Assembly: GCA_009695205.1 (NCBI GenBank)
Contig: SIBK01000010.1
Span: 9,670-73,669, forward strand
Length of the DNA stretch: 64,000 bases
Origin: Pedosphaera sp.
GTDB lineage: Bacteria > Verrucomicrobiota > Verrucomicrobiia > Limisphaerales > UBA9464
Direction of reading: 5' to 3'
Shown here: piece after piece, positions 27,790 through 60,290 of the stretch
How the letters are laid out: each line of letters starts with the position of its first letter
Position numbering within the stretch: the stretch's first letter is position 1
The notes under the pieces: model-generated
Database searches by the model: none
Seen by the model: only the letters and a program-made list of their open reading frames with translations
What the model was told of the DNA's origin: nothing
Made by a program: the position numbers and the translations under genes

Positions 27790-28043
27790 GGGGTGATCTT
27801 AACGCCTAGCGTTGAAAAGGCGACGCTTGTCCGGCAGGGATGCCTGATGCGGGTGTATCCCGAAGTTGTTTGTACACGGGCACTCTTAAGGCGCGGAGCG
27901 CCCACAACATCGGGATGCGCCCGCCGAAGGCCACTTGGCAGAAAAACGAGAAATGCCACGCAATTTTTCCCAAAATTCCTTTGCATCCGAATCGACTTCC
28001 GCTCGACCCGCACCAATTGCGTCGGCAAGGTACCTCGGCTTTT

Positions 28044-47360: not shown

Positions 47361-47377
47361 TCATAACCATCCGGTCA
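47361..47377 (+). repeat. IS left terminal inverted repeat
   Basis: TCATAACCATCCGGTCA, read directly from the sequence. Confidence 0.8.
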
Positions 47378-47498
47378 CGGAGTCGAAATGTGGTCGGAAG
47401 TTATTCATGTCAGCATAGTTGCGACGAGATTTGGGTGTGAGCGATTCCGGGTTGAAATGCTGAATTCCCGTAAGCAGCGGGCATGCCAACCTCTCGGC

Positions 47499-48665
47499 AT
47501 GCCGCTAAATAAATCCGTCTTTTCGCAAGGCATGGATCGCGTCCATCCAGAGTTATTTCGTCGTTGCGTCGATCGTTATGCCGAAAACTATAAGACGTCT
47601 TCCTTCTCCTGCTGGGATCAATTCCTCACCATGGCGTTCGTGCAACTCACCTATAGGCAGAGCCTCGTGGACCTAAAGACTTGTCTCCGTGCCAGACCCG
47701 ATCAACTCTACCACTTAGGCTTCCGATCGTCGGTCTCCCATAGCACTCTGGCCGACGCCAATCTCAACCGAGACCGGAGAATCTATGCCGAACTTGCACA
47801 GTCGCTGATCCGGAGAGCCCGACGGCTTTATTCCGGTGACCCACTTGACGCGGAGATTGCCAAGACCGTCTATGCGTTCGACTCCACAACTGTTCAACTC
47901 TGTCTGAGCCTCTTTCCCTGCGCGAAGTTCCGCACCGGCAAGGGTGCCATCAAGCTCCACACCCTCATTGATGTTCGCGGGGCGGTGCCGACGATGATCA
48001 CGATTTCCGAAGGGAAAATGGCCGATGTGAGGGCGTTGGATGAGTTGGTGATCGAACCCGGTGCGTGCTATGTCATGGATCGTGGCTATCTCGACTTTGC
48101 TCGCCTCCGTGTGCTGGCGGAGGCCGGCGCATTATTCGTGACCCGGACCAAGGCTGGGGTTCTTTTCAGCCGGCAGGAATCGATGCCCGTAGACAAGTCT
48201 ACCGGTGTCCGCAGCGACCATGTCGTATTGCTGGTTACAGCGGCGAGCATCAAGAACTACCCGGAGCGAATGCGTTAGGTGGCCTACCGGGATCCAGAGG
48301 ACGGGAAAGTGCTGGTGTTCTTGACGAACAACTTTGTGCTGGCGGCCTTTAAGATTGCCGCCATCTATAAGTTGCGATGGCGTTTGGAACTATTCTTCAA
48401 ATGGATTAAGCAGAATTTCCGCATCGAACACTTCTATGGCACGAGTGAAAACGCGGTGAAAACACAAATCTGGATCGCGGTTTGCGTTTATCTGCTCGTG
48501 GCGATCCTGAGGAAGGAACTGGGTGTGGAGATGAGCTCCTCCCAAATTCTCCAGATTTTGAGCGTGACACCGTTTGAACAAGTACCTCTGAATGAGTTAC
48601 TTGCGAGGTTTCGATCCCAAGATATTCCTATATCTCCTCCTAACCAGTCGATGCTGTGGCAGTAA
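47499..48665 (+). pseudogene. IS4-family DDE transposase with in-frame TAG
   Basis: ORFs 47388..48278 and 48279..48665 are contiguous in one frame, separated only by TAG 48276-48278 (..YPERMR*VAYRDPEDGK..). Conserved FSCWDQFLTMAFVQLTYRQSL, DRGYLDF and RWRLELFFKWIKQN motifs. Likely start is ATG 47499 (MPLNKSVFSQ). Confidence 0.8.
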
Positions 48666-48682
48666 TGACCGGATGGTTATGA
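48666..48682 (-). repeat. IS right terminal inverted repeat
   Basis: TGACCGGATGGTTATGA is the exact reverse complement of the left IR. It starts directly after the transposase TAA. Confidence 0.8.
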
Positions 48683-49087: not shown

Positions 49088-49200
49088 TCAGAAGTACGAG
49101 GGCATCGATCCCGACAGAAGCCTTGCCCCTTCGGCAATGTTTAGAACGACGCTCTTTGCAGCCCTCCGAAAATGATCACACTCCAGGGCGCTCCGCGCCT
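49088..49200 (-). pseudogene. four-helix-bundle protein (23S rRNA IVS-type) fragment
   Basis: Only the signature RRAAKSVVLNIAEGARL is recognisable (family motif S..NIAEG). Confidence 0.3.
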
Positions 49201-49425
49201 TCAGAGCGCAGGTTTGCCAACAACTTCGGGATGCGCCCCCGTCTCGACAGGCCGCGAATTGTGTGCTTGCGATTGTCCAAAACTTTGGTGTACGTGTACC
49301 GCCGCAAGCCTGAACTTGCCCCGGTTTTGTTGCTTGCCGTTGCAATGCGTTTCACAAGGCAACACTGTCGAAAATCTTGTAGCAACTGCCTGGCTGGTTC
49401 TCATAAGTGCTTCACAATCAGTATT

Positions 49426-50578: not shown

Positions 50579-50823
50579 AACGCCCCACGCTCCCTCCCCT
50601 TATAAAGGGTCGGGGCGTTCGGGGCGTAGACACATGAGGACGCAACGCCCCAAGGCCGAAAAGGGCGTAGTCGGGGCGTAGGGGCGTTGATGCAGTATCC
50701 CCCTTGTTTGCAAGGGTTTTGTAACGCCCCACCTTCTTTTGGGAGCGGGGGCGTTGATGTCGGGAAAGTGACCCCAAAAACAACGCCCCGATGCCATCTC
50801 TGAATCCGAGGTGACTGGGGCGT
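50579..50823. repeat. cluster of 11 short iteron-like repeats GGGGCGT(T/A)
   Basis: Forward copies at 50612, 50621, 50663 (GGGCGT), 50673, 50681, 50748 and 50817. Reverse copies (AACGCCCC) at 50579, 50644, 50723 and 50782. GGGGCGTTGATG occurs twice (50681, 50748). Confidence 0.7.
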
Positions 50824-51458
50824 CATTTCTCGAGCCTCCGCTCTCCGGAAAGATCCTTTACGATCACAACCGCGGCCTCCATTTTCTCCATACGTTTTCG
50901 TGAACCGCTTTTACTCTTCATGCGCAGTTGGTCTTTCAGCCGGTCGATGAATTCACCCCACGGTAGGGACTCTCGTTTCGAATAAAGGAACACGGATTGC
51001 GCCTCGCTCAAAAGTTGTGCACGTTGAGCGTCAAATTTCGAGCGTCCGCCCGCGGTGGTGGATACGTGCATCCGGTGTTCATCTGACCACTCGAAGCGGG
51101 TTCCCTTGTCCTTGGGAATTGGTGCGTGGCGGTTTTTGTCGCTCCACACAACGGCAACGTCTTCGTCCTTGTCGAGTCTGAGGTTTGTTTCCGATTTCCG
51201 TTCGAGTTGGCTCCCAAGGTGACCTCTGGTTTTGGGAGTGCCTCCTTTTGCCTGTCCACCGGGATTCAGATGAATGACCAAAACGATGGCGCATTCAAAT
51301 TGGATGGCCAGTGCGTGCAACTCCGCAACGAAAGCGTTTGATTCCGCGGCGTCGTTGACGTCCAGAACCAGGTCAGCGATGCCGTCGATAAAAACGGAGT
51401 GGACACCACCGAGGTCAGCTTTGGCGGTTTCCAGCAAGAGCGTCAGAAGTAGCCTCAC
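50823..51458 (-). pseudogene. RepA/AAA_25 (P4-type primase-helicase-like) ATPase, N-terminally truncated
   Basis: VFIDGIADLV..ELHALAIQFECAIVLVIHLNP matches the Walker B/sensor region of RecA-fold AAA_25 proteins. No Walker A is present. The upstream part is replaced by the 3' end of the SMP-30-like gene region. Confidence 0.55.
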
Positions 51459-51510: not shown

Positions 51511-52455
51511 TCAATTCCCGCAGCCTTTGCTGTAGCGCCACCCCCTCAAACCCACCGGCAACTTGAAGACGGCCTCCTTGGCCGCGACCGTCACGTATAG
51601 ATCTCCATTAAAAAAATGCACGTTCGTCGCCAGTTTGCCTCCCGCGTCGTAGGTCGCCAGGATCCTGCCGCTGGGGACCTCAATGACGTGAATGACGCCC
51701 CCGGTCCAGGTGCCGAGATAGAGTCGCCCCGCGTCGTCGAAGACGAATCCGTCGGGGACTTCGTCCTTACCTGGGAGTGTTAGCAGGCCGCGTGGATTCG
51801 ATCCCTTGCCGTCGACCATATCCAGGATCATGAGCTGCTTCGTGTCCGAGTCGGCCGTGATCAGGTGCTTGCCGTCCGGAGTCAGGCCGATGCCATTGGA
51901 GCCAATCGGCTCGGGGTTCAGCTTGTCGACCGTGCCGCCGTCTCTATTCCATCGGTAGACGTTTTTCTGCCCCGGATTCGAGAAGTAGATATTGCCGTGA
52001 GGGTCGAGCGCGACGTCGTTCAGGCCTTTGAGCCGCACGCCGTTCACCTCTCGAACGAGGACCTCCACCTTTTTGCCATCCTTCGAAATTCGGATGACCT
52101 GCGACGTGCCGGTCTCCGCCGCGATGAGGTTCCCATCGTCGTCGATCTTGATGCCGTTGCAGCCCGGCTGGCGGTCGCCTTCGGCGGGCAAGTGCTTTCG
52201 CAAATCGATGAAGATGCTCGCCGAGCCGTCAGGCGTGATCTTGCCGATGGTGCCCCCTTCTCGATAGTTCACCACGTAGAGGTTGCCCTCGCGGTCGATC
52301 GCCGGTCCTTCGGCGAAGGTGAACCCGGTGCAGTAGAGCGAAGGCCGGATCGTGGAAGATTTGGGCAACGCAGCAACCTGTTTTTGAGATTGAGCCGTTC
52401 CTGGCAAAAGCCCGAGAACGAGCAGCGCCGCAAGGGCAAGTGTTGGGGTCCGCAT
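51511..52455 (-). CDS. SMP-30/gluconolactonase/LRE-family beta-propeller protein, secreted
   Basis: Signal peptide. Repeated blades with FAEGPAIDREGNLYVVN, NGIKIDDDGNL, LNDVALDPHGNIYFS, PNGIGLTPDGKHL and PDGFVFDDAGRLYLG. Confidence 0.85.
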   Translation of the reverse strand: MRTPTLALAALLVLGLLPGTAQSQKQVAALPKSSTIRPSLYCTGFTFAEGPAIDREGNLYVVNYREGGTIGKITPDGSASIFIDLRKHLPAEGDRQPGCNGIKIDDDGNLIAAETGTSQVIRISKDGKKVEVLVREVNGVRLKGLNDVALDPHGNIYFSNPGQKNVYRWNRDGGTVDKLNPEPIGSNGIGLTPDGKHLITADSDTKQLMILDMVDGKGSNPRGLLTLPGKDEVPDGFVFDDAGRLYLGTWTGGVIHVIEVPSGRILATYDAGGKLATNVHFFNGDLYVTVAAKEAVFKLPVGLRGWRYSKGCGN

Positions 52456-52466
52456 AATAGTGAATA

Positions 52467-52501
52467 ATTGATAGGAATTTCCTTTGACGCTCCGCGATTA
52501 G
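52467..52501 (-). repeat. 35-bp repeat, copy 1 (11 nt upstream of the SMP-30-like ATG)
   Basis: Plus strand reads ATTGATAGGAATTTCCTTTGACGCTCCGCGATTAG, identical to copy 2. Confidence 0.9.
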
Positions 52502-54244
52502 GCGCGATTTGGTGATCTCCAAGGCCTCCCAGGTCATTGACTCCGCTTCTGACAGCCGGTTTTGTTCCGCCAAAGCGGCGGCAAGGTTTGTGAGCTTCGC
52601 CACGACTTCAAGATTTACCCCGCCAAAGATTCGTTTGCTCATCGCCAATGCCTGGGTAAACAAAGCTTCCGCCTCGATGAATTTGCCCTGAGCCATCCGC
52701 AGCGCGCCCAGGTGGTTGAGCGCGGTCGCTACATTCGGATGTTCCTCCGAAAAGGACTTCTTTACGGCGTCGAGTTCCTCACACAACAGGGTTTCAGCCT
52801 CGGCCAGCTTTCCCCGCTTCAGCAGAATACTGGACAGGCTGTTGGGAGACCCGGTGTGGTTCGGCTGCTGTCCTCCCTTCCATTCTTTTTCCATGGCGGT
52901 TGCCTGTCGTGCCAGCGATTCTGCTTCAGCGAGATTGCCTTGTTCCATCAGGACGAGGGCCAGATTGTCGAGACAGTGGGCGATCTCCTCGTGTGGTGGT
53001 TGGAGGAGTTTTTTTTTGCAAGGCCAGGGCCTGGCGAAGCAAGGCTTCGGCCTCCTTCAGCTTGCCTTGCTCAGTGAGCAGTTCCGCGACGAGATTTTGC
53101 GCGCGGGCAACGTGCGGGTGCTCAGGACCATGAAGCCTGGTCTCAATCGCCAGCGCCTCGCGAAACATGCGCTCTGCCTGGCTGTGCTCACCCAGATCGC
53201 GATAGACGACACCAATCGTGCTGAGCAGATGTGCTTCGGCTCGGGGTTGGTGTTTCAACTCCTTCTCGACCCGCGTTGCGGCCTTGTCCACCAACTCGCG
53301 CAACAAAGCCGTGTCGCGTCCAAGCGCAATCGAAGGTCGCACCCCCTCCAGCAGTTCCTGCCAAAACAGGGCAACCTCACGGTTTGCCGTTCCTTCCAAC
53401 ACAGCCGCCCGCTCTGCCCAAGTGGCCCGCACGGCCTGCCATGTCGTCGCCATCAATCCCAGCAACAACAAGCCGATCATGCCGGTGGCCACGGTGAGTG
53501 CGGTGCGGTGGCGGCGAACGAATTTTCCCGTTCGATAGACTGCGCTGGGCGCGGCGGCCAGGACCGGCTCGCTGTTCAGGTGCCGCCGAATGTCCGTGGC
53601 GAGATCGTTGGCCGTCTCGTAACGGCGGCTGCGGTCCTTTTCGAAACACTTCATCACGATCCAGTCGAGGTCCTTGTCGATTTCGGATTTTAGATTTCCG
53701 ATTTCCGATTTGCCCGAACCGGTTGCACGGGTCGCCAACCGCTCCCGCGTGAGGCGCGTGCTGGGCTTGAGCGGCTCGACCTCGCAGATCACCCGGCGCA
53801 GTTCGTCGAGGCCGGCCGCGAGGAGTTCCTGCGCGTCGAAGGGGTCTTGCCGGTCAGCAACTCGTAGAGCAGCACACCCAGGCTGTAGATGTCGCTGCGG
53901 GTGTCGATGTCCAGGTTCGTGAATTCCGCCTGTTCAGGACTCATGTAGGCGGGCGTGCCGAGGAATTGGGCGAAGCGGGTGAAAATCGTATTGTCCGTCA
54001 GTTGCTGGTCGGTGGCTTTGGCGATGCCGAAGTCAATGACCTTGGGCACCGGCACGCCGTCATTGACGGTGACGAGCACATTGGAAGGTTTGAGGTCGCG
54101 ATGGGCCAACAGGGACTCGACTTCGCGCCGCAAGGCTTCGTCGCCGGCGCACCTGTCGTCCAGGTAAGCAGCGCGCCGGGCGGCGTCAGGGAGGCCGGCG
54201 GCTTCGGCAAACGGGGCTTCCACCCGTTGCGGATCGGCACTCAT
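52502..54244 (-). pseudogene. Ser/Thr protein kinase with TPR C-terminal region, decayed
   Basis: The N-terminal ..[12 protein letters not shown] runs directly into [11 protein letters not shown], so the kinase N-lobe is missing (junction about 54103). DFG and GTPAYMSPE are present. Frameshift at the C4 run 53841-53844 (GKTP|FDAQELL) and at the A9 run 53009-53017 (LQKK|LLQPPHEE). TPR repeats are cut off at the 35-bp repeat. Confidence 0.75.
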
Positions 54245-54452
54245 GGCTGGGTTCTTCGTTTGTCGCCTTGTTCGTTCAGTTCATTGGCCGGCGCGGTCTC
54301 CCAGGCCGCTGCCGCCGCCGGCGCCGTGGATGGGTTGGCTTCGTGCGTCATTGCCGTGCCTCGTTGAGGATTCATTCGCCGGCCACGATATTTGTCAACA
54401 TTCAGGTTCAATCACCGTCCGCCATTGTTCGGCAGGCCTTTCAGACCTACGC

Positions 54453-57400
54453 TTACCAATCCTTCGGTGGGCATTTGATGGGGTTCGACACGGTGCCCCC
54501 CGGATTCACCAATTGCTGGCAGATGCCGACCCGAAGAACCTGCCAATCATTGTAGTTGAGGAGGTTGAAGTCCTGGATGCCGTCGGCCTTGGGACGCATC
54601 CAGACAGCCCCCAAGCCGGTGTCCGTTGGCATGCCGGTCGTCACGGCGCGCAGGTTCGTGTCCACACCCTCCTCGTAGAGAAGGTCAACGCCGGCAGCGA
54701 CCGCCCACACATTGTCAAAGGGTCCTTCCAAGCCGACCTTCTCAGCTTTCGTCACCGAACCATCCGCGTTCCTGATGACTTTCACGTAAGACATCATCCA
54801 CTGCATCATCCAGGAGCCGTCGGCGACGTAAAGCAGGTAGAAGCGCCCCGGAAACTCAGAGGAGTGATGCGTCGGGACCCAAGCCATTGCCGGCCGCGCT
54901 CGAATGGGTCCCGGGCGCCTTTCCAGTACGGCCGTCTTCTCCCAGCGACCCGTCCCGTTGTTCCACCACCAGATGTCCAGCCTGCCATCGACCGCGGAGG
55001 CGAAGGCCCCATAGAGTGCTGGGATCCCCGGCTTGTAGGGCAAGTAGGCCCGGGCAATCGTCGGCGAAGCGTTTGCAGCGAGCGTGACTTCAACACCCGT
55101 CGAACTGACCTGCACAGCATCGCCTTCCCATCCCCATGAATTCCAGATTCCGGTCCGATTCATTCGTAGTTTGCCATCCGTCCCTTTGAAGGCAAGATGG
55201 GCCGAGCTGGCGTCAAGGCGGACGAGCGAGGGTTCTCCTGAAGCTGCCGCGCCGGAGGCAATGACGGCAGGGATGGTCCAGCTCTCCAGCGTGATGAACC
55301 CGGCGTTAAGCAGAGATAGCCGTACATCGCGGAGGACGCCGGTTGCGGAGGTGCCCACGAGCAGGATCCGGCTCTGACTTCCGCTGCCGATCGGGATCGC
55401 GTCGAGCCCCTGCGTGGCATCGAGCGCGAGCCTGCCCCTCCCGCTAACGGTGCCGCATGGCGTGATGTCGGGTACTGGGCAATTGAAGGAGGAGGTCGAC
55501 CACGTATACCAAACAGAATCGTTGCTCGCCCAGAAGACGTATGTCCGGTTACCAAGTCGGGCGATGGCGGGGCTCTTGCCGCTGGTCCCGCCTATCTCGA
55601 CGGCATTGTACCGTGTCCATTCGCAGCCGCCGCCGCCTGGTCTATAGTTCGCATACGCACGCACGGTCGTTCCGGCCGGGGCGAAAACACCATCGCGGTT
55701 CCAGTCGACATGGCCTGAGGTCTCGTCCACGTAGTAGAGGAACTCTTTCTGCAAGAGTTCGAGGTAGCTCGTGTTGCTCGGCGGCACCGCCTCCCACTCT
55801 GTCAGCGCGGTGTTGTTCAACACACCTGTGTCGAGCCCGTCGCTGAACCCGATCTGATCCGGCGCCGACTGGTACGCGTAGTTCATTAACGATTGATAAT
55901 TCGGTTTGCAGTTGGGATCGGCGACGCCCGTTATGCCACTCGGGCCCGAATGGCCCAGGCCGTTGGCGTGACCCGACTCGTGGGCGAGCACCCACGGCTC
56001 GTTGAGGCCGGCGGAGAAGGAGAAGTAATTCTCCGTGTTGCTGCCACCGCCAGATGCGGGCGCCGGCGAGTGGCGGAAGATGCCGCGACGTGCCGGCGAG
56101 AGGTGCGTCCTCCACACGTCGTGATAATCCACCCCGCCCCAGTCACCTTCGGCGTTCGTTACTGGCGGGATAACGTTGTGGCCGCCCCAGTCGCCGAAGA
56201 TCGTCGCGTCCGCGGGGTCCGTCGGGACGACGCCGATATCGAGGTGCGCCCGGATACCGGGCTTGCCGTCCGGGTTTCTCAGGACCGCCGCACGGTAAGC
56301 CTGCCGAAACGGGCTCGCCGTGCCGATTTGGTCGCCGTAGTAGGCCGCGAACTTGCGGGCGTTGGCAGCGGTCATCTTGACCTCGGCCTCGCCCGGTGAG
56401 CGCTGCATGAAATCGAACTCAACAAACAGATCTTTGTGGCGCGGGTTAGCGCCCCAGAGCGGCAGCGCTTGGTGCGGCCACATGTCGCGGCGGCCAAGTA
56501 CTTCCCAACCGTCGGAGATGCCATCCCCGTCGGTGTCGCGAGGGTCGGTGGCCAGCCTACAGTTGAAGGGGACGCCGTCTGGACCCGTGGCAAACCCTGT
56601 AAGGCTGTCGCAAGTACCGAGTTGGATCTCCAGTTCGTGGCCAAGTCCATCGTGGTCGGGGTCGTGTCCTGCCAGCCCGACATCGTTCCTGATGAAGCGA
56701 GCGGCACCCGGCACGGCCCAGCGGTTCACTCCGACGACGGCCGTGCGGTTGCCGAGCGTTCCCGCCAGCGCAAGCGCCGCCGCGCCAGTGGTGCCATTGC
56801 CGTAACCACGCAGCTCGATTCCAACGCCGTCCGACTTGAGCACGAAGAGGAGATGAGTGCCCTGCGCGCCGTTAGGCACTTTGACCGTCTCAAGCGTCTC
56901 GTTCGCGCGAAGTTGCGGCAATGATACTTGCGAGCCGGCGAACGCTACACCGGTCTGCCAGACCGTGCCGTCCTTGGTGAGATTGCAGCTGCCCGCCGTC
57001 GTATTCGAGCGAGCGCGTACAACCACGCGGTAGTTGCCACTCGTTGAGGGAGTATACGTGAGCCACGCGGCAGAGCCCGGCCCACTGTTGTCGTCGACAG
57101 CAACTTCATAGCCGTTCACGTCGAGAAGATGCATCACTGGATCGGATCCGGGTGAGAGGTCGGTGGTGCGGAACGTAACCAGGCGATTCGCGGGGAGATC
57201 AAGGGTGTAATCACTGATGACGCCCATGTTCACCTCGAAGACCATCGGCACGGCGAGGGCGTACACTGTCGGCCCGCCGGTATAGTTGGCGTGGAGCCGG
57301 AAGAACTGGTGCGGCAGGTCCAACCGCGGCGCGTCGTAGCACAGGCGGCGCGGGTCCGCGCAAGGCATGGGCACCACCGGCAGCGGCATCCAATCGATCA

Positions 57401-58190
57401 AGTTGGTGGAGACTTCCACTGTGAGAGTTACCAGGCCCGACCGCCAAAAGGGCAGATTGGCCAACGGATCGACCGCCAGGCGCACGGTTTGATCTTCCAG
57501 CCGAATCTGAGCGATCTGCACATGCCCGGGGATCTGGTTGGTCGGCTCCTGCAGGATCGCCATCGCGCTGATGGTCGCGTTCTCCGGCGGGTTGCCTGGG
57601 CCGCGATCCTGGATGGTGATGTTCAGGATGCTATCGGCCACTAGCACGTTTGTAAAGATGACTTGCGTGGCCTTGAAGGCGGTTCCCAAGCCGTCGTTCG
57701 GCAGGCCGCGTGCGGCATCGGCCGGGTTGTAGTCGTTCCGGAGACGGCCTTCGACTTCGACGTTGAAGACCCGCGCGCTGCCGACGGGGCCGTTGCCGCC
57801 GAGATTTGAGTTCACGCACGCCGCGCAGTTCTCGGAGAAATAGAGGATGACAGTGTGCGGGCCGTTGAGCACTGGAATCTCATAGCGGAGGTCGCCGTCC
57901 TTCCAGCGCTGGTGGAGCAACACCTCATTGGGAATGCTCCGATCGCTCAACAGCGAGGCGTCCACGACATTCGTCGGCTGGAACGTAGCGATGCTGGTGT
58001 TAGACGAGACGAGGAAGCTTTTGTCCGGTTCCCACGACCGGCCCACGCTGTCCGTCACGCCGTTGGTGCCGCCGCAGTTGAGGTAGAGAGCGCCGCTCAC
58101 CGTGGTGGCGGTCAGCGTGAGTAGTAGTAAAGGGACCGCGCTGGCCACGGTCTTCGCTCGGTCCCAGGTTCGAGTTTCTCTTGGCTTCAT
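54453..58190 (-). CDS. secreted multidomain metzincin-type zinc metalloprotease with N-terminal malectin-like domain
   Basis: Signal peptide. Malectin-like LNCGGTNGVTDSVGRSWEPDKSF. TSP3-like Ca-binding DPRDTDGDGISDGWE. Extended zinc motif HESGHANGLGH (HExxHxxGxxH). Long C-terminal beta-rich region. Confidence 0.8.
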   Translation of the reverse strand: MKPRETRTWDRAKTVASAVPLLLLTLTATTVSGALYLNCGGTNGVTDSVGRSWEPDKSFLVSSNTSIATFQPTNVVDASLLSDRSIPNEVLLHQRWKDGDLRYEIPVLNGPHTVILYFSENCAACVNSNLGGNGPVGSARVFNVEVEGRLRNDYNPADAARGLPNDGLGTAFKATQVIFTNVLVADSILNITIQDRGPGNPPENATISAMAILQEPTNQIPGHVQIAQIRLEDQTVRLAVDPLANLPFWRSGLVTLTVEVSTNLIDWMPLPVVPMPCADPRRLCYDAPRLDLPHQFFRLHANYTGGPTVYALAVPMVFEVNMGVISDYTLDLPANRLVTFRTTDLSPGSDPVMHLLDVNGYEVAVDDNSGPGSAAWLTYTPSTSGNYRVVVRARSNTTAGSCNLTKDGTVWQTGVAFAGSQVSLPQLRANETLETVKVPNGAQGTHLLFVLKSDGVGIELRGYGNGTTGAAALALAGTLGNRTAVVGVNRWAVPGAARFIRNDVGLAGHDPDHDGLGHELEIQLGTCDSLTGFATGPDGVPFNCRLATDPRDTDGDGISDGWEVLGRRDMWPHQALPLWGANPRHKDLFVEFDFMQRSPGEAEVKMTAANARKFAAYYGDQIGTASPFRQAYRAAVLRNPDGKPGIRAHLDIGVVPTDPADATIFGDWGGHNVIPPVTNAEGDWGGVDYHDVWRTHLSPARRGIFRHSPAPASGGGSNTENYFSFSAGLNEPWVLAHESGHANGLGHSGPSGITGVADPNCKPNYQSLMNYAYQSAPDQIGFSDGLDTGVLNNTALTEWEAVPPSNTSYLELLQKEFLYYVDETSGHVDWNRDGVFAPAGTTVRAYANYRPGGGGCEWTRYNAVEIGGTSGKSPAIARLGNRTYVFWASNDSVWYTWSTSSFNCPVPDITPCGTVSGRGRLALDATQGLDAIPIGSGSQSRILLVGTSATGVLRDVRLSLLNAGFITLESWTIPAVIASGAAASGEPSLVRLDASSAHLAFKGTDGKLRMNRTGIWNSWGWEGDAVQVSSTGVEVTLAANASPTIARAYLPYKPGIPALYGAFASAVDGRLDIWWWNNGTGRWEKTAVLERRPGPIRARPAMAWVPTHHSSEFPGRFYLLYVADGSWMMQWMMSYVKVIRNADGSVTKAEKVGLEGPFDNVWAVAAGVDLLYEEGVDTNLRAVTTGMPTDTGLGAVWMRPKADGIQDFNLLNYNDWQVLRVGICQQLVNPGGTVSNPIKCPPKDW

Positions 58191-58244
58191 AACAATGCTC
58201 CATTCTATTCGATCTGTGTTGAGATTTCGGCTTGCGCAACCTTT

Positions 58245-60065
58245 CTAATTATCTTCATTGATAGGAATTTCCTTTGACGCTCCGCGATTAGCGCGGTCGT
58301 AGGCGCACACGCGTGTCAGCCTGGAGCGTGGTTCGCTCACCTTTTCCCACGACGCTGATGTCTTGTTGGCGCCCGCTTCAAGCACGACGACAGGTACACC
58401 CGCACCTTTGCACTCGATGTAGAGCGGCAGCTGAACCGTCGCTTCGTTCATCGGTGCAAGCGCCGTGACGGCTGCAACGATCAGTGCGCCGCGTACCATG
58501 CCCGAATCGTAACGCGTGCCCCTCGCTTGCGGGAGGCGTTGCGGGAGGATAGGTAATTCAAGGCACGATTTCCTTGTCCGAGAACGTCCATTCTGTCCAC
58601 TACGCGGCGCTACCCCTATACTCTCTGGCTCCCCGTCGGCACAGGCGAGTAACGAAGTGCCATGCTGCTCCCGGCGGGGCGTCAGCGCGTTGGATCTACT
58701 ATCCGTCTGGTTCGCGTCCCCGTCACCCCGCGCAGAAAACAGCTTCCACTCTCCCGGGATGCCCTTCAGCTCGTGCATCCCCCGGTCCTGAAAATCGATC
58801 CCGGACCCGGCCGCGAGGTCCTTCACTGTGCCGGAAACCAGCACCTCGCCTGGGTCCGCTTTGGCCATGATCCGCGCGCCCGTGTGCACAGCGATGCCGC
58901 CCACGTTGTCGCCCATCAACACGCATTCCCCCGTGTGCACCCCCGCGCGCACTTCGATGCCAAGCTGCCGGACCGCCCCCGCGATCGCCAGTGCGCAACG
59001 CACCGCGCGCGCCGGGCCATCAAACGTTGCGAGAAATCCATCGCCCGCCGTGTTGGTCTCCTTCCCGCGGAAGCGCGCCAGTTCCTTGCGCACGATCGCG
59101 TAATACGAGTTCAGGAGATTGCTCCACGCGGAGTCGCCAAGCTGCACGGCGCGCTTGGTGGACGACGCGATGTCGAGAAAGAGCACGGTGGCCAGGATGC
59201 GATCGGAGGAATCGATCGGCCGCTCGCCGGTGATGAATTCCTGGATGTCGGAGAGAATCGTGTCCATGTCGTCGAGCATCGGCGAGTGGCTATTGCCGGG
59301 ATACTCGTTGAACTTCGCACCCGGAATGCGCGAAGCCATGTCGCGCGCGGCTCCGCAGATGACGCAGGGGTCGCCGGTGCGGTTCATCACCAGAGTGGGC
59401 GTCTGGATCGACGGGAGAATGGACCGGGTGTCGATCTGCCCGTTCATCGTCTCGTAGGCCCGGACGGCCGACGGGCTCGCGGCCGCCCGCATGTAGCGGG
59501 TGACCGATTCAATGAACGCGGGATCGGCGTCCCGGCCCACGCCGGCGCCAAATCCGGTGACGTAATCAAAGGAAGGCCAGTCGTCCTGAATCGAGGCTAG
59601 CATCTGATCGTGTTCTTCGCGGGTCTGACCCCACGGATGGTCGGGAGAATTGATCCAGCGGGCTTGGGCGCCCCAAATTATCAGCGAGATCACACGCTCC
59701 GGATGGGTGGCGGCAAAGAGGCATGCCATCGAGCCGCCCTCAGAGAAACCGATCAAGTGGGCGCGCTCGAGACCGAGATCGTCCATCACCGCACGAATGT
59801 CGTCGGTGCGCTCCTCGAGCGTGGCCATTTTCACCGGCCGATCAGACAGGCCCGTGCCGCGTTTGTCGAAACGAATGAGCCGGCAGAATTTTCCGAATCG
59901 CTCAAAGAACAGCGCGCGCCGAGGCATCTCCCAGTCCATGTCCAGGTGCGACATCGTGCCCGGCGCCCAGACCACGTCGACGGAACCTTCCCCCGTGACC
60001 TGGTAGGCGATGAGCACGTCGCCGCTGCGGGCGTATTTTGTTTTCGGCAGGGCCATGAGAGACAT
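58245..60065 (-). CDS. alpha/beta-hydrolase - class III adenylate/guanylate cyclase fusion protein (with an anomalous C-terminal tail)
   Basis: N-terminal hydrolase fold (FDKRGTGLSDR, GFSEGG nucleophile elbow). Cyclase domain (ATVLFLDIASST..TAGDGFLATF..VHTGE..GIAVHTGARI). The last ~155 codons lie beyond the cyclase domain and run through repeat copies and a hydrolase remnant. Confidence 0.8.
   Translation of the reverse strand: MSLMALPKTKYARSGDVLIAYQVTGEGSVDVVWAPGTMSHLDMDWEMPRRALFFERFGKFCRLIRFDKRGTGLSDRPVKMATLEERTDDIRAVMDDLGLERAHLIGFSEGGSMACLFAATHPERVISLIIWGAQARWINSPDHPWGQTREEHDQMLASIQDDWPSFDYVTGFGAGVGRDADPAFIESVTRYMRAAASPSAVRAYETMNGQIDTRSILPSIQTPTLVMNRTGDPCVICGAARDMASRIPGAKFNEYPGNSHSPMLDDMDTILSDIQEFITGERPIDSSDRILATVLFLDIASSTKRAVQLGDSAWSNLLNSYYAIVRKELARFRGKETNTAGDGFLATFDGPARAVRCALAIAGAVRQLGIEVRAGVHTGECVLMGDNVGGIAVHTGARIMAKADPGEVLVSGTVKDLAAGSGIDFQDRGMHELKGIPGEWKLFSARGDGDANQTDSRSNALTPRREQHGTSLLACADGEPESIGVAPRSGQNGRSRTRKSCLELPILPQRLPQARGTRYDSGMVRGALIVAAVTALAPMNEATVQLPLYIECKGAGVPVVVLEAGANKTSASWEKVSEPRSRLTRVCAYDRANRGASKEIPINEDN
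58257..58291 (-). repeat. 35-bp repeat, copy 2 (66 nt upstream of the metzincin ATG)
   Basis: Identical to copy 1. Coordinates cross-checked against the ORF 58245..60065 translation (..ANRGASKEIPIN..). Confidence 0.9.
58541..58606 (-). repeat. 66-bp repeat, copy A (41 nt upstream of the remnant hydrolase ATG at 58499)
   Basis: 58 of 66 positions identical to copy B by manual alignment. A tandem TTGCGGGAGG x2 lies at 58526-58548. Confidence 0.85.
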
Positions 60066-60089
60066 TACGCGCTACTCCAGGAATCGCAC

Positions 60090-60155
60090 GCGGGAGGATA
60101 GGTAATTCAAGGCTGCGTTTCGTTGTCCGAGAACGCCCATTCTAACCACTACGCG
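60090..60155 (-). repeat. 66-bp repeat, copy B (24 nt upstream of the hydrolase-cyclase ATG at 60065)
   Basis: GCGGGAGGATAGGTAATTCAAGGC..TTGTCCGAGAACG.CCATTCT..CCACTACGCG. Directly adjoins 35-bp copy 3. Confidence 0.85.
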
Positions 60156-60190
60156 ATTGATAGGATTTTCCTTTGACGCTCCGCGATTAG
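60156..60190 (-). repeat. 35-bp repeat, copy 3 (90 nt upstream of the hydrolase-cyclase ATG)
   Basis: ATTGATAGGATTTTCCTTTGACGCTCCGCGATTAG; one mismatch to copies 1 and 2. Confidence 0.9.
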
Positions 60191-60270
60191 TATCATCCTC
60201 CACAGCCTCACCACAAGGATTTTGTGGAGTTGTTCGCCAGATTCCGCAGGTGGCAAGAGAACAGGCTGTT

Positions 60271-60290
60271 GGCACTTGATTCCAAGTGCC
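60271..60290 (-). terminator. hairpin directly after the stop codon of the 1014-aa gene
   Basis: GGCACTTG-ATTC-CAAGTGCC is a perfect 8-bp stem with a 4-nt loop, abutting TGA at 60291-60293. No U-tract follows, so an intrinsic-terminator role is uncertain. Confidence 0.4.

Follow-up and report, generated by a model that had tools for sequence, protein, structure and literature searches.

A 35-bp sequence, ATTGATAGGAATTTCCTTTGACGCTCCGCGATTAG, occurs three times in direct orientation in the 64,000-nt stretch of Pedosphaera sp. contig SIBK01000010.1 analyzed here (the whole stretch is hereafter called the window), each time at the joint of unrelated pieces of DNA. Judging from its translation, this 35-mer is a 12-codon piece (codons 70–81) of a secreted alpha/beta-hydrolase gene. 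We tentatively interpret it as the identity block of an attachment or recombination site that would derive from the hydrolase gene and bound segments lacking an integrase, probably as a fossil. A preliminary description of the window had proposed either a promoter or operator shared by the genes that follow the repeat or the 5’ boundary of segments moved by recombination; the regulatory interpretation is unlikely, and the junction of recombined segments lies closer to the evidence.

Copies 1 (52467–52501) and 2 (58257–58291) of the 35-mer are identical to each other, while copy 3 (60156–60190) departs from them by a single A-to-T change. As written above the sequence lies on the plus strand in all cases; read in the sense of the neighboring genes, which are encoded on the minus strand, the copies end 11, 66 and 90 nt ahead of the ATGs at 52455, 58190 and 60065, respectively. 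They are all co-oriented, with spacings of 5790 and 1899 bp, and constitute the strongest direct-repeat family of the window, in dinucleotide-preserving shuffles of which no match to the 35-mer was obtained (0/100; chance expectation 0). A scan of the window thus bears out all three positions, the orientation, the distances to the start codons and the single mismatch listed in the preliminary description. Copy 1 is situated between the cut TPR tail of a Ser/Thr kinase pseudogene and the gene of an SMP-30/gluconolactonase-like (SGL) protein, whose ATG it precedes by the 11 nt mentioned; copy 2 prolongs a hydrolase gene remnant; and copy 3 stands between the hairpin-rich 3’ untranslated region (UTR) of a DUF7133/cytochrome c gene and a 66-nt block (block A, see below). 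The 3’ edge of the repeat is common to all four known copies, one of which belongs to a second genome, and the 5’ edge to three of them. Outside these edges the flanks do not align, apart from the 66-nt block adjoining copy 3, and a word-size-7 BLAST search (E ≤ 10) of the 35-mer and the leaders against the window retrieved no diverged copies of either the 35-mer or the 66-nt block.

The composition of the 35-mer is uneven: in gene sense, the G+C content is 59% in its 5’ 17 nt, which is genome-like, vs. 28% in its AT-rich 3’ half (18 nt). It holds an imperfect 21-bp palindrome, and the AGGAA-A-TTCCT inverted repeat that had been described earlier is intact in copies 1 and 2, whereas in copy 3 it is broken by the mismatch.

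The coding origin of the repeat is most apparent at copy 2. Directly upstream of it lies the remnant of a secreted alpha/beta-hydrolase gene (58292–58498, minus strand), comprising the first 69 codons from the signal peptide to ...CAYDRA, and the reading frame runs unbroken from this remnant into the 35-mer (CAYDRA|NRGASKEIP). Copy 2 itself supplies hydrolase codons 70–81, read as (A)NRGASKEIPIN, and a stop codon follows three codons on (58245–58247). An exhaustive HMMER search with the remnant and its read-through matched 1999 alpha/beta-hydrolases, and most of these alignments reach query residues 75–84, that is, beyond residue 70, where the preliminary description had placed the cut. The family shares the motif C-A-Y-D-R-A-[G/N]-x-G-x-S-[D/E]-x-x-P, and one of its members (P0177) reads YDRANRGAS at this place. 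We built a hidden Markov model (HMM) from 93 family members and scored the sequence with and without the residues encoded by the 35-mer: residues 1–70 alone obtained 81.8 bits, and the addition of the 11 residues encoded by the repeat raised the score to 94.5 bits (+12.7), a value that none of 200 shuffles of these same residues reached (mean 83.5, maximum 88.0 bits). The per-residue gain is clear through Ser75 (nucleotide 17 of the 35-mer), still positive at Pro79 (nucleotide 29) and flat from there on, and tblastn alignments of family members likewise cross 58291–58257. Because the similarity to hydrolases persists in the same frame across the 35-mer, the 5’ edge of copy 2 is not a breakpoint and only its 3’ edge can be one, which overturns the initial view that copy 2 cuts off the remnant at ..RVCAYDRA. 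A word-indexed search found no close orthologue of the remnant, and Pfam gives the fragment no score.

A scan of 185,579 species genomes (one per species) revealed one further copy of the 35-mer, at a locus (L001) on contig SIBE01000052.1 of Pedosphaera sp. Baikal-deep-G225, a different metagenome-assembled genome (MAG) from Lake Baikal (locus tag EXS30, vs. EXS36 for the window). This copy is identical to the 35-mer at 34 of 35 positions, and the rest of the locus bears no resemblance to the window. Here, the repeat joins a 3’-cut RCC1-like gene, which ends in mid-repeat (...DYHTVA, then TAA TAA), to a 5’-cut lactonase gene on the same strand that retains the last 104 of the 344 profile positions of a 7-bladed lactonase. 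Since the downstream gene is truncated at its 5’ end, the 35-mer is not always placed ahead of an intact gene. Relatives of the region (L006–L009, ~84% identical) diverge before the joint. No copies were found in two scans of JGI metagenome contigs (one per half of the 35-mer), or in three viral scans (one of them using the 66-nt block) and a phage BLAST search, and a plasmid BLAST search gave only a chance-level partial match to the Salmonella ptrB gene. An alternative parse of positions 799–835 of L001 gives a full 35-mer with a 3-nt insertion (CTAAT-AAT-CGCGG), equivalent to one extra Asn codon in the hydrolase frame; on this parse, there is a hint that the L001 copy may have undergone evolution as a coding sequence prior to its arrival at the joint.

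Independent assemblies cover part of the window. The 1245-residue metzincin-like protein encoded downstream of copy 2 is identical to MSU34361 (Pedosphaera sp., locus tag EXS36, on a contig of 77.5 kb), and an ENA contig of 5385 nt has the gene layout of window positions 59190–53806 and spans copy 2 together with both of its flanks. A Logan contig (k = 31) from run SRR8561390 starts inside the 35-mer, of which it includes 27 nt, and runs into the metzincin leader; a break at this place is as expected for a true repeat that has several left flanks. The copy-2 joint, at least, is therefore not an artifact of a single assembly. Exact-protein look-ups of the SGL gene, the 606-residue open reading frame (ORF) and the TPR read-through ORF, which lie near copies 1 and 3, returned no record.

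The 66-nt block A (60090–60155), which directly abuts copy 3, recurs with 88% identity as block B (58541–58606), the leader of the hydrolase remnant; both are in minus-strand sense. The earlier statement that the flanks are unrelated thus stands insofar as they do not align with each other, and has to be amended for this block beside copy 3. While the copies of the 35-mer in the window differ at 0–1 of 35 nt, the neighboring blocks differ at 8 of 66 (12%), which argues that the 35-mers are younger or have been kept uniform. Neither a diverged 35-mer upstream of block B nor leader homology reaching past the 66 nt was significant. Block A and the adjoining ~24 nt form the upstream region of an alpha/beta-hydrolase–class III cyclase gene (58725–60065, minus strand), three relatives of which (L002, L003 and L010; 86–91% protein identity) keep an upstream region of ~60–110 nt with a TTGACC box, even though their neighboring genes differ, and all three are devoid of block A. 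In the window, the 35-mer, the 66-nt block and 24 nt stand in place of this conserved region, beginning roughly at the start codon. A promoter replacement therefore did happen at the hydrolase–cyclase gene, but nothing identifies the 35-mer as its active part. Relatives of the metzincin gene (L005), as well as those of the hydrolase–cyclase gene, have other neighbors and carry neither block.

The interpretation of the 35-mer as an attachment core is favored because the repeat is a discrete unit of coding origin, its copies are nearly identical and directly oriented between unrelated flanks, no target-site duplication accompanies them (none was seen by eye in the flanks of all four copies), and mobile-element debris surrounds them. 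Two features of such cores can be recognized: identical direct repeats, here three co-oriented copies, bound the segments, and at copy 2 the target gene runs into one side of the core, in the manner of an attL. In the sequence of events that we envisage, an integrative element whose attP copied a stretch of the hydrolase gene (attB) would have integrated into that gene, and copy 2 would be the resulting attL-type joint, with native hydrolase sequence on its left and foreign DNA on its right. Further elements may then have integrated into the att sites thus formed (accretion), and the subsequent loss of integrase and transfer genes would have turned them into att-bounded remnants. The three direct copies would accordingly delimit segments of 1.9 and 5.8 kb with cargo genes and no integrase, similar to decayed cis-mobilizable members of a tandem array, and the region from 47.3 to 60.2 kb would represent a degraded mobile-element zone in which three genes acquired new upstream DNA as a side effect of the joints. 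A recombinase would have made these joints, and the array would by now be inactive. Between the two explanations of the preliminary description, the boundary of recombined segments is also the one that better fits the presence of all copies at joints, the lack of target-site duplications, the abundance of gene fragments and insertion sequence (IS) material in the zone, and the replaced upstream region.

Our preference for an attachment core stays tentative because several of its expectations fail. There is no integrase or site-specific recombinase in the 64-kb window, and no ORF of sizeable length has a tyrosine recombinase domain. The 3’ part of the hydrolase gene, which should be found on the attR side, is absent from the window and from all loci in tblastn searches with 11 family members. 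Copy 3 is located upstream of the hydrolase 5’ part, where a simple accretion array at that gene predicts otherwise, and its direct abutment to a hydrolase-type 66-nt leader, an arrangement that resembles the head-to-tail junction of a segment extending from the 66-nt block to the 35-mer, is not accounted for. The 35-mer shows no inverted pair of recombinase-binding arms around a 6–8 bp spacer, only the imperfect 21-bp palindrome. Lastly, the known copies number just four, and neither the 185,579 species genomes nor the JGI metagenome contigs yielded an intact target gene containing the 35-mer.

Accretion and decay are known to leave behind arrays of att repeats that surround remnants without an integrase (PMC5704250). 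As in tandem accretion arrays with cis-mobilizable elements (CIMEs; e.g., ICESt1/CIME, PMC5704250), short identical direct repeats here bound cargo that has no integration genes, a host gene runs into one of the repeats, and debris of mobile elements lies nearby. Unlike in those arrays, no integrase is known, the target would be an internal segment of a gene (codons 70–81) rather than the 3’ end of a gene or a tRNA, the target gene lacks its 3’ part, and one repeat is on the ‘wrong’ side of the target 5’ part. The att repeats of decayed integrative elements being already known, the 35-mer would, if our best reading holds, add one case of that kind. In an uncultured verrucomicrobium from fresh water, it would then document, on a small scale, integrative elements that target the middle of a protein-coding gene, and also their decay into integrase-less segments, with genes gaining foreign upstream regions as a by-product.

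A possible, if rather doubtful, alternative is that the 35-mer is a passive patch without function, a piece of the hydrolase gene that was copied into breakpoints by illegitimate recombination or replicative template switching. The donor, namely the hydrolase remnant, lies inside the same 8-kb stretch as the copies and is co-oriented with them, and the 5’ joints show short microhomology, with a repeated AATCGCG 3 nt upstream of copy 1 and a CGCG ahead of copy 2. The zone also contains joints that lack the 35-mer (the deletion in the kinase gene, the helicase fragment next to the SGL gene and the domain fusion of the metzincin), and no recombinase was found in the window. However, random switching should not produce identical 35-nt boundaries three times and then once again in another MAG, and the near-identity of the 35-mers, set against the 12% divergence of the 66-nt blocks, argues for a defined unit that was recently used or homogenized.

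We regard it as unlikely that the 35-mer forms one end of a small mobile unit of the non-autonomous type (for instance, the 350 bp from 58606 to 58257) or is the solo end of an unknown IS. Under this hypothesis, copy 3 and block A would form a head-to-tail junction derived from a circle or tandem, and copy 1 and the L001 copy would be solo ends. The idea draws on the fact that the two blocks that bracket the hydrolase 5’ part also abut in reverse order at 60090–60190, on the sharp edges at both sides and on the IS material in the zone. Against it, such a unit would consist of an ordinary gene leader and 81 hydrolase codons, its 66-nt blocks differ by 12%, in contrast to the almost identical 35-mers, it has no inverted repeats, target-site duplications or transposase of its own, and it left no copies in the plasmid, phage, viral and metagenome collections. 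The preliminary description had raised the possibility that the 35-mer is the tip of a longer IS or miniature inverted-repeat transposable element (MITE) with its own inverted repeats; within the window, no inverted partner was detected at up to three mismatches, all matches being on the plus strand, and the inverted repeats of the local IS4-like element have a sequence unrelated to the 35-mer. In general terms, the 35-mer resembles solo IS ends, MITEs and repetitive extragenic palindromic (REP) sequences or the bacterial interspersed mosaic elements (BIMEs) built from them in being a short, dispersed and sharp-edged repeat in an IS-containing zone, but differs from them in lacking an inverted partner, a target-site duplication, a REP palindrome and any relation to the IS4-like element.

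Quite unlikely, in turn, is the regulatory hypothesis, according to which the 35-mer serves three downstream genes as a common promoter or operator (a ‘mobile promoter’) and would co-regulate them through a factor bound to the AGGAAATTCCT palindrome or to a TATCAAT box. The three gene-sense copies do stand 11–90 nt ahead of the ATGs of three unrelated genes, the palindrome and the AT-rich 3’ half could suit such a function, and the native promoter region of the hydrolase–cyclase gene has been replaced by the 35-mer and a 66-nt block. There is precedent as well, as near-identical sequences upstream of unrelated genes have been reported as instances of promoter reuse or putative mobile promoters (PMC3575422). 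The similarity to these cases resides in the near-identical sequence before unrelated genes and the replaced native upstream region; unlike them (PMC3575422), the 35-mer has no promoter consensus, is of coding origin and also precedes a 5’-truncated fragment. The arguments against regulation are numerous: a scan for sigma-70-type consensus sequences gave no match at any copy, the spacing to the start codon varies (11, 66 and 90 nt), the repeat is hydrolase coding DNA, its sole mismatch in the window breaks the palindrome, the gene downstream of the L001 copy is truncated, the bias in orientation follows trivially from the location of all local genes on one strand, and exact identity with sharp edges suits copying and not selection on a binding motif. 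Taken together, these observations speak against the shared promoter or operator envisaged in the preliminary description. The predicted fold energy of the 35-mer was no better than that of shuffles on either strand (z ~0), and scans of the window with Rfam (gathering scores) and for tRNAs gave no matches. Motifs of the FNR/CRP type or of extracytoplasmic function (ECF)-type promoters, compared by eye, were discarded because their spacing or half-sites do not fit. An exact short repeat before several genes is, by itself, no evidence of regulation, and translating a repeat in the frame of its neighbors can reveal where it came from.

It is very unlikely that the 35-mer is the site of an undescribed Pedosphaera cassette-exchange system, in which a recombinase encoded elsewhere in the genome would act on a site borrowed from a hydrolase gene to excise, insert and reshuffle segments with genes for secreted or signaling proteins and provide them with new upstream regions; were it true, the system would be integron-like in function, albeit with a non-attC, sequence-identical 35-bp site. 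Integron attC arrays, including clusters of attC sites lacking an integron integrase (CALIN), likewise place same-orientation sites shortly upstream of successive co-oriented genes. In contrast to attC sites, which measure 55–140 bp, the 35-mer is only 35 bp long, lacks the R''-L''/L'-R' architecture and has no GTTRRRY core at its edge; its copies are identical in sequence, whereas attC sites are conserved only in structure. Moreover, no intI is present in the window (it is not required for CALIN), and the ‘cassettes’ hold several genes and pseudogenes. In mycoplasma surface-protein gene families, vrs/vis sites of ~34–35 bp recombine by inversion next to a dedicated recombinase gene. What they have in common with the 35-mer is a length of ~35 bp, a location 5’ of a number of genes that encode secreted or surface proteins, and the exchange of flanks; the 35-mer copies, however, are direct and not inverted, and no recombinase was seen. 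The spacings of 1899 and 5790 bp, with genes between the copies, are also unlike the regular spacers of ~30–40 bp in a CRISPR array. The 35-mer shares TGACGCTC with the Tn3 inverted repeat, but its architecture matches neither that repeat nor an arm of the Flp recognition target (FRT).

Finally, an assembly or library artifact, in which chimeric joins form via short shared sequence or an adapter, is most improbable. In its favor, the window and L001 both belong to short-read MAGs from a single Lake Baikal study, the joints coincide with gene truncations, and the independent confirmation covers copy 2 and not copies 1 and 3. Against it, a separate ENA assembly contains the copy-2 joint, the right side of which also appears when the raw run is assembled by Logan, the length of 35 bp falls far below that of the reads and of the final k-mers that modern assemblers use, the 35-mer is confined to Pedosphaera contigs and is not found in the other MAGs of the collection, and it encodes a bona fide hydrolase motif in frame.

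The surroundings of the three copies differ markedly from the rest of the window. The first 47 kb hold housekeeping genes (argB-like, guaB, nadA, tmk, mfd, lpxK, nusB, trxA, ftsY and proS) and no recombinase, and are followed, from 47.3 to 60.2 kb, by a ~13-kb mosaic that contains all three copies of the 35-mer, an IS, gene fragments and decayed genes, and ~2 kb without recognizable genes. Copy 3 falls exactly on the border of this mosaic; on its far side, the DUF7133/cytochrome c gene has an intact 3’ UTR with hairpins. At the opposite end of the zone there is an IS4-like element (47361–48682, plus strand; DUF4372 and DDE_Tnp_1) with perfect 17-bp inverted repeats, TCATAACCATCCGGTCA, whose transposase is split by an in-frame stop at 48276–48278. 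A DnaB-like or primase-helicase C-terminal fragment of mobile-element type (AAA_25 type, PHROG 243; 50823–51458, minus strand) starts right after the stop of the SGL gene, so that a truncated mobile-element gene is found here at a joint without the 35-mer. The SGL gene itself (51511–52455, minus strand) is intact and encodes a signal peptide.

The Ser/Thr kinase–TPR pseudogene (52502–54244, minus strand) has lost the kinase N-lobe through an in-frame internal deletion (..EVESLLAH|RDLKPSN..) and contains two frameshifts, near 53842 and 52930. The Logan contig shares the frameshift near 53842, and the two independent contigs, from ENA and Logan, end at the same position, 53806. The TPR tail of the pseudogene is cut at copy 1, as had been proposed at the outset, and the Pfam TPR match extends to ~7 nt before the 35-mer. 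The metzincin-like gene (54453–58190, minus strand; 1245 residues) possesses an additional 309-residue N-terminal part (57262–58190) with a weak malectin match, in comparison with 966-residue relatives that have their own 30-residue signal peptide; this addition appears to be a domain fusion in the same unstable zone. As for the 606-residue ‘hydrolase–cyclase fusion’ of the preliminary description, the gene is better viewed as one of ~443 residues, the length of its relatives, that lost its stop (58725–58745) through a 1-nt deletion in a G run (GCGCGGG-GTGAC vs. GCGAGAGCGTGAG in relatives); the deletion could be a real mutation or a consensus error. The annotated 606-residue product reads on through the hydrolase remnant, the ORF extending to 58245. 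Such read-through and fragment ORFs in the MAG annotation (the 606-residue ‘fusion’ and the three pieces of the kinase) should be treated as pseudogenes.

A few additional elements were seen in and around the mosaic. Around 48.8–49.1 kb, the translation looks by eye like the remains of another transposase, with no Pfam support. At 60191–60290, just before copy 3 in gene sense, the 3’ UTR of the DUF7133/cytochrome c gene contains two hairpins, GGCACTTG-GAAT-CAAGTGCC and CCACAA-AATCC-TTGTGG, which are terminator-like, yet without a T run. A second dispersed repeat of 58 nt occurs in inverted orientation at 27846–27903 (plus strand) and 49186–49243 (minus strand) with 81% identity; it reads ..ATCCCGAAGTTGTT..AAGGCGCGGAGCGCC.. 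and contains a GGCGC-GGA-GCGCC hairpin. A link between this repeat and the 35-mer was considered and rejected, since the two have only CGCGGAGCG in common. One copy of the 58-nt repeat lies just upstream of an M20 peptidase gene and the other in the gene-poor zone.

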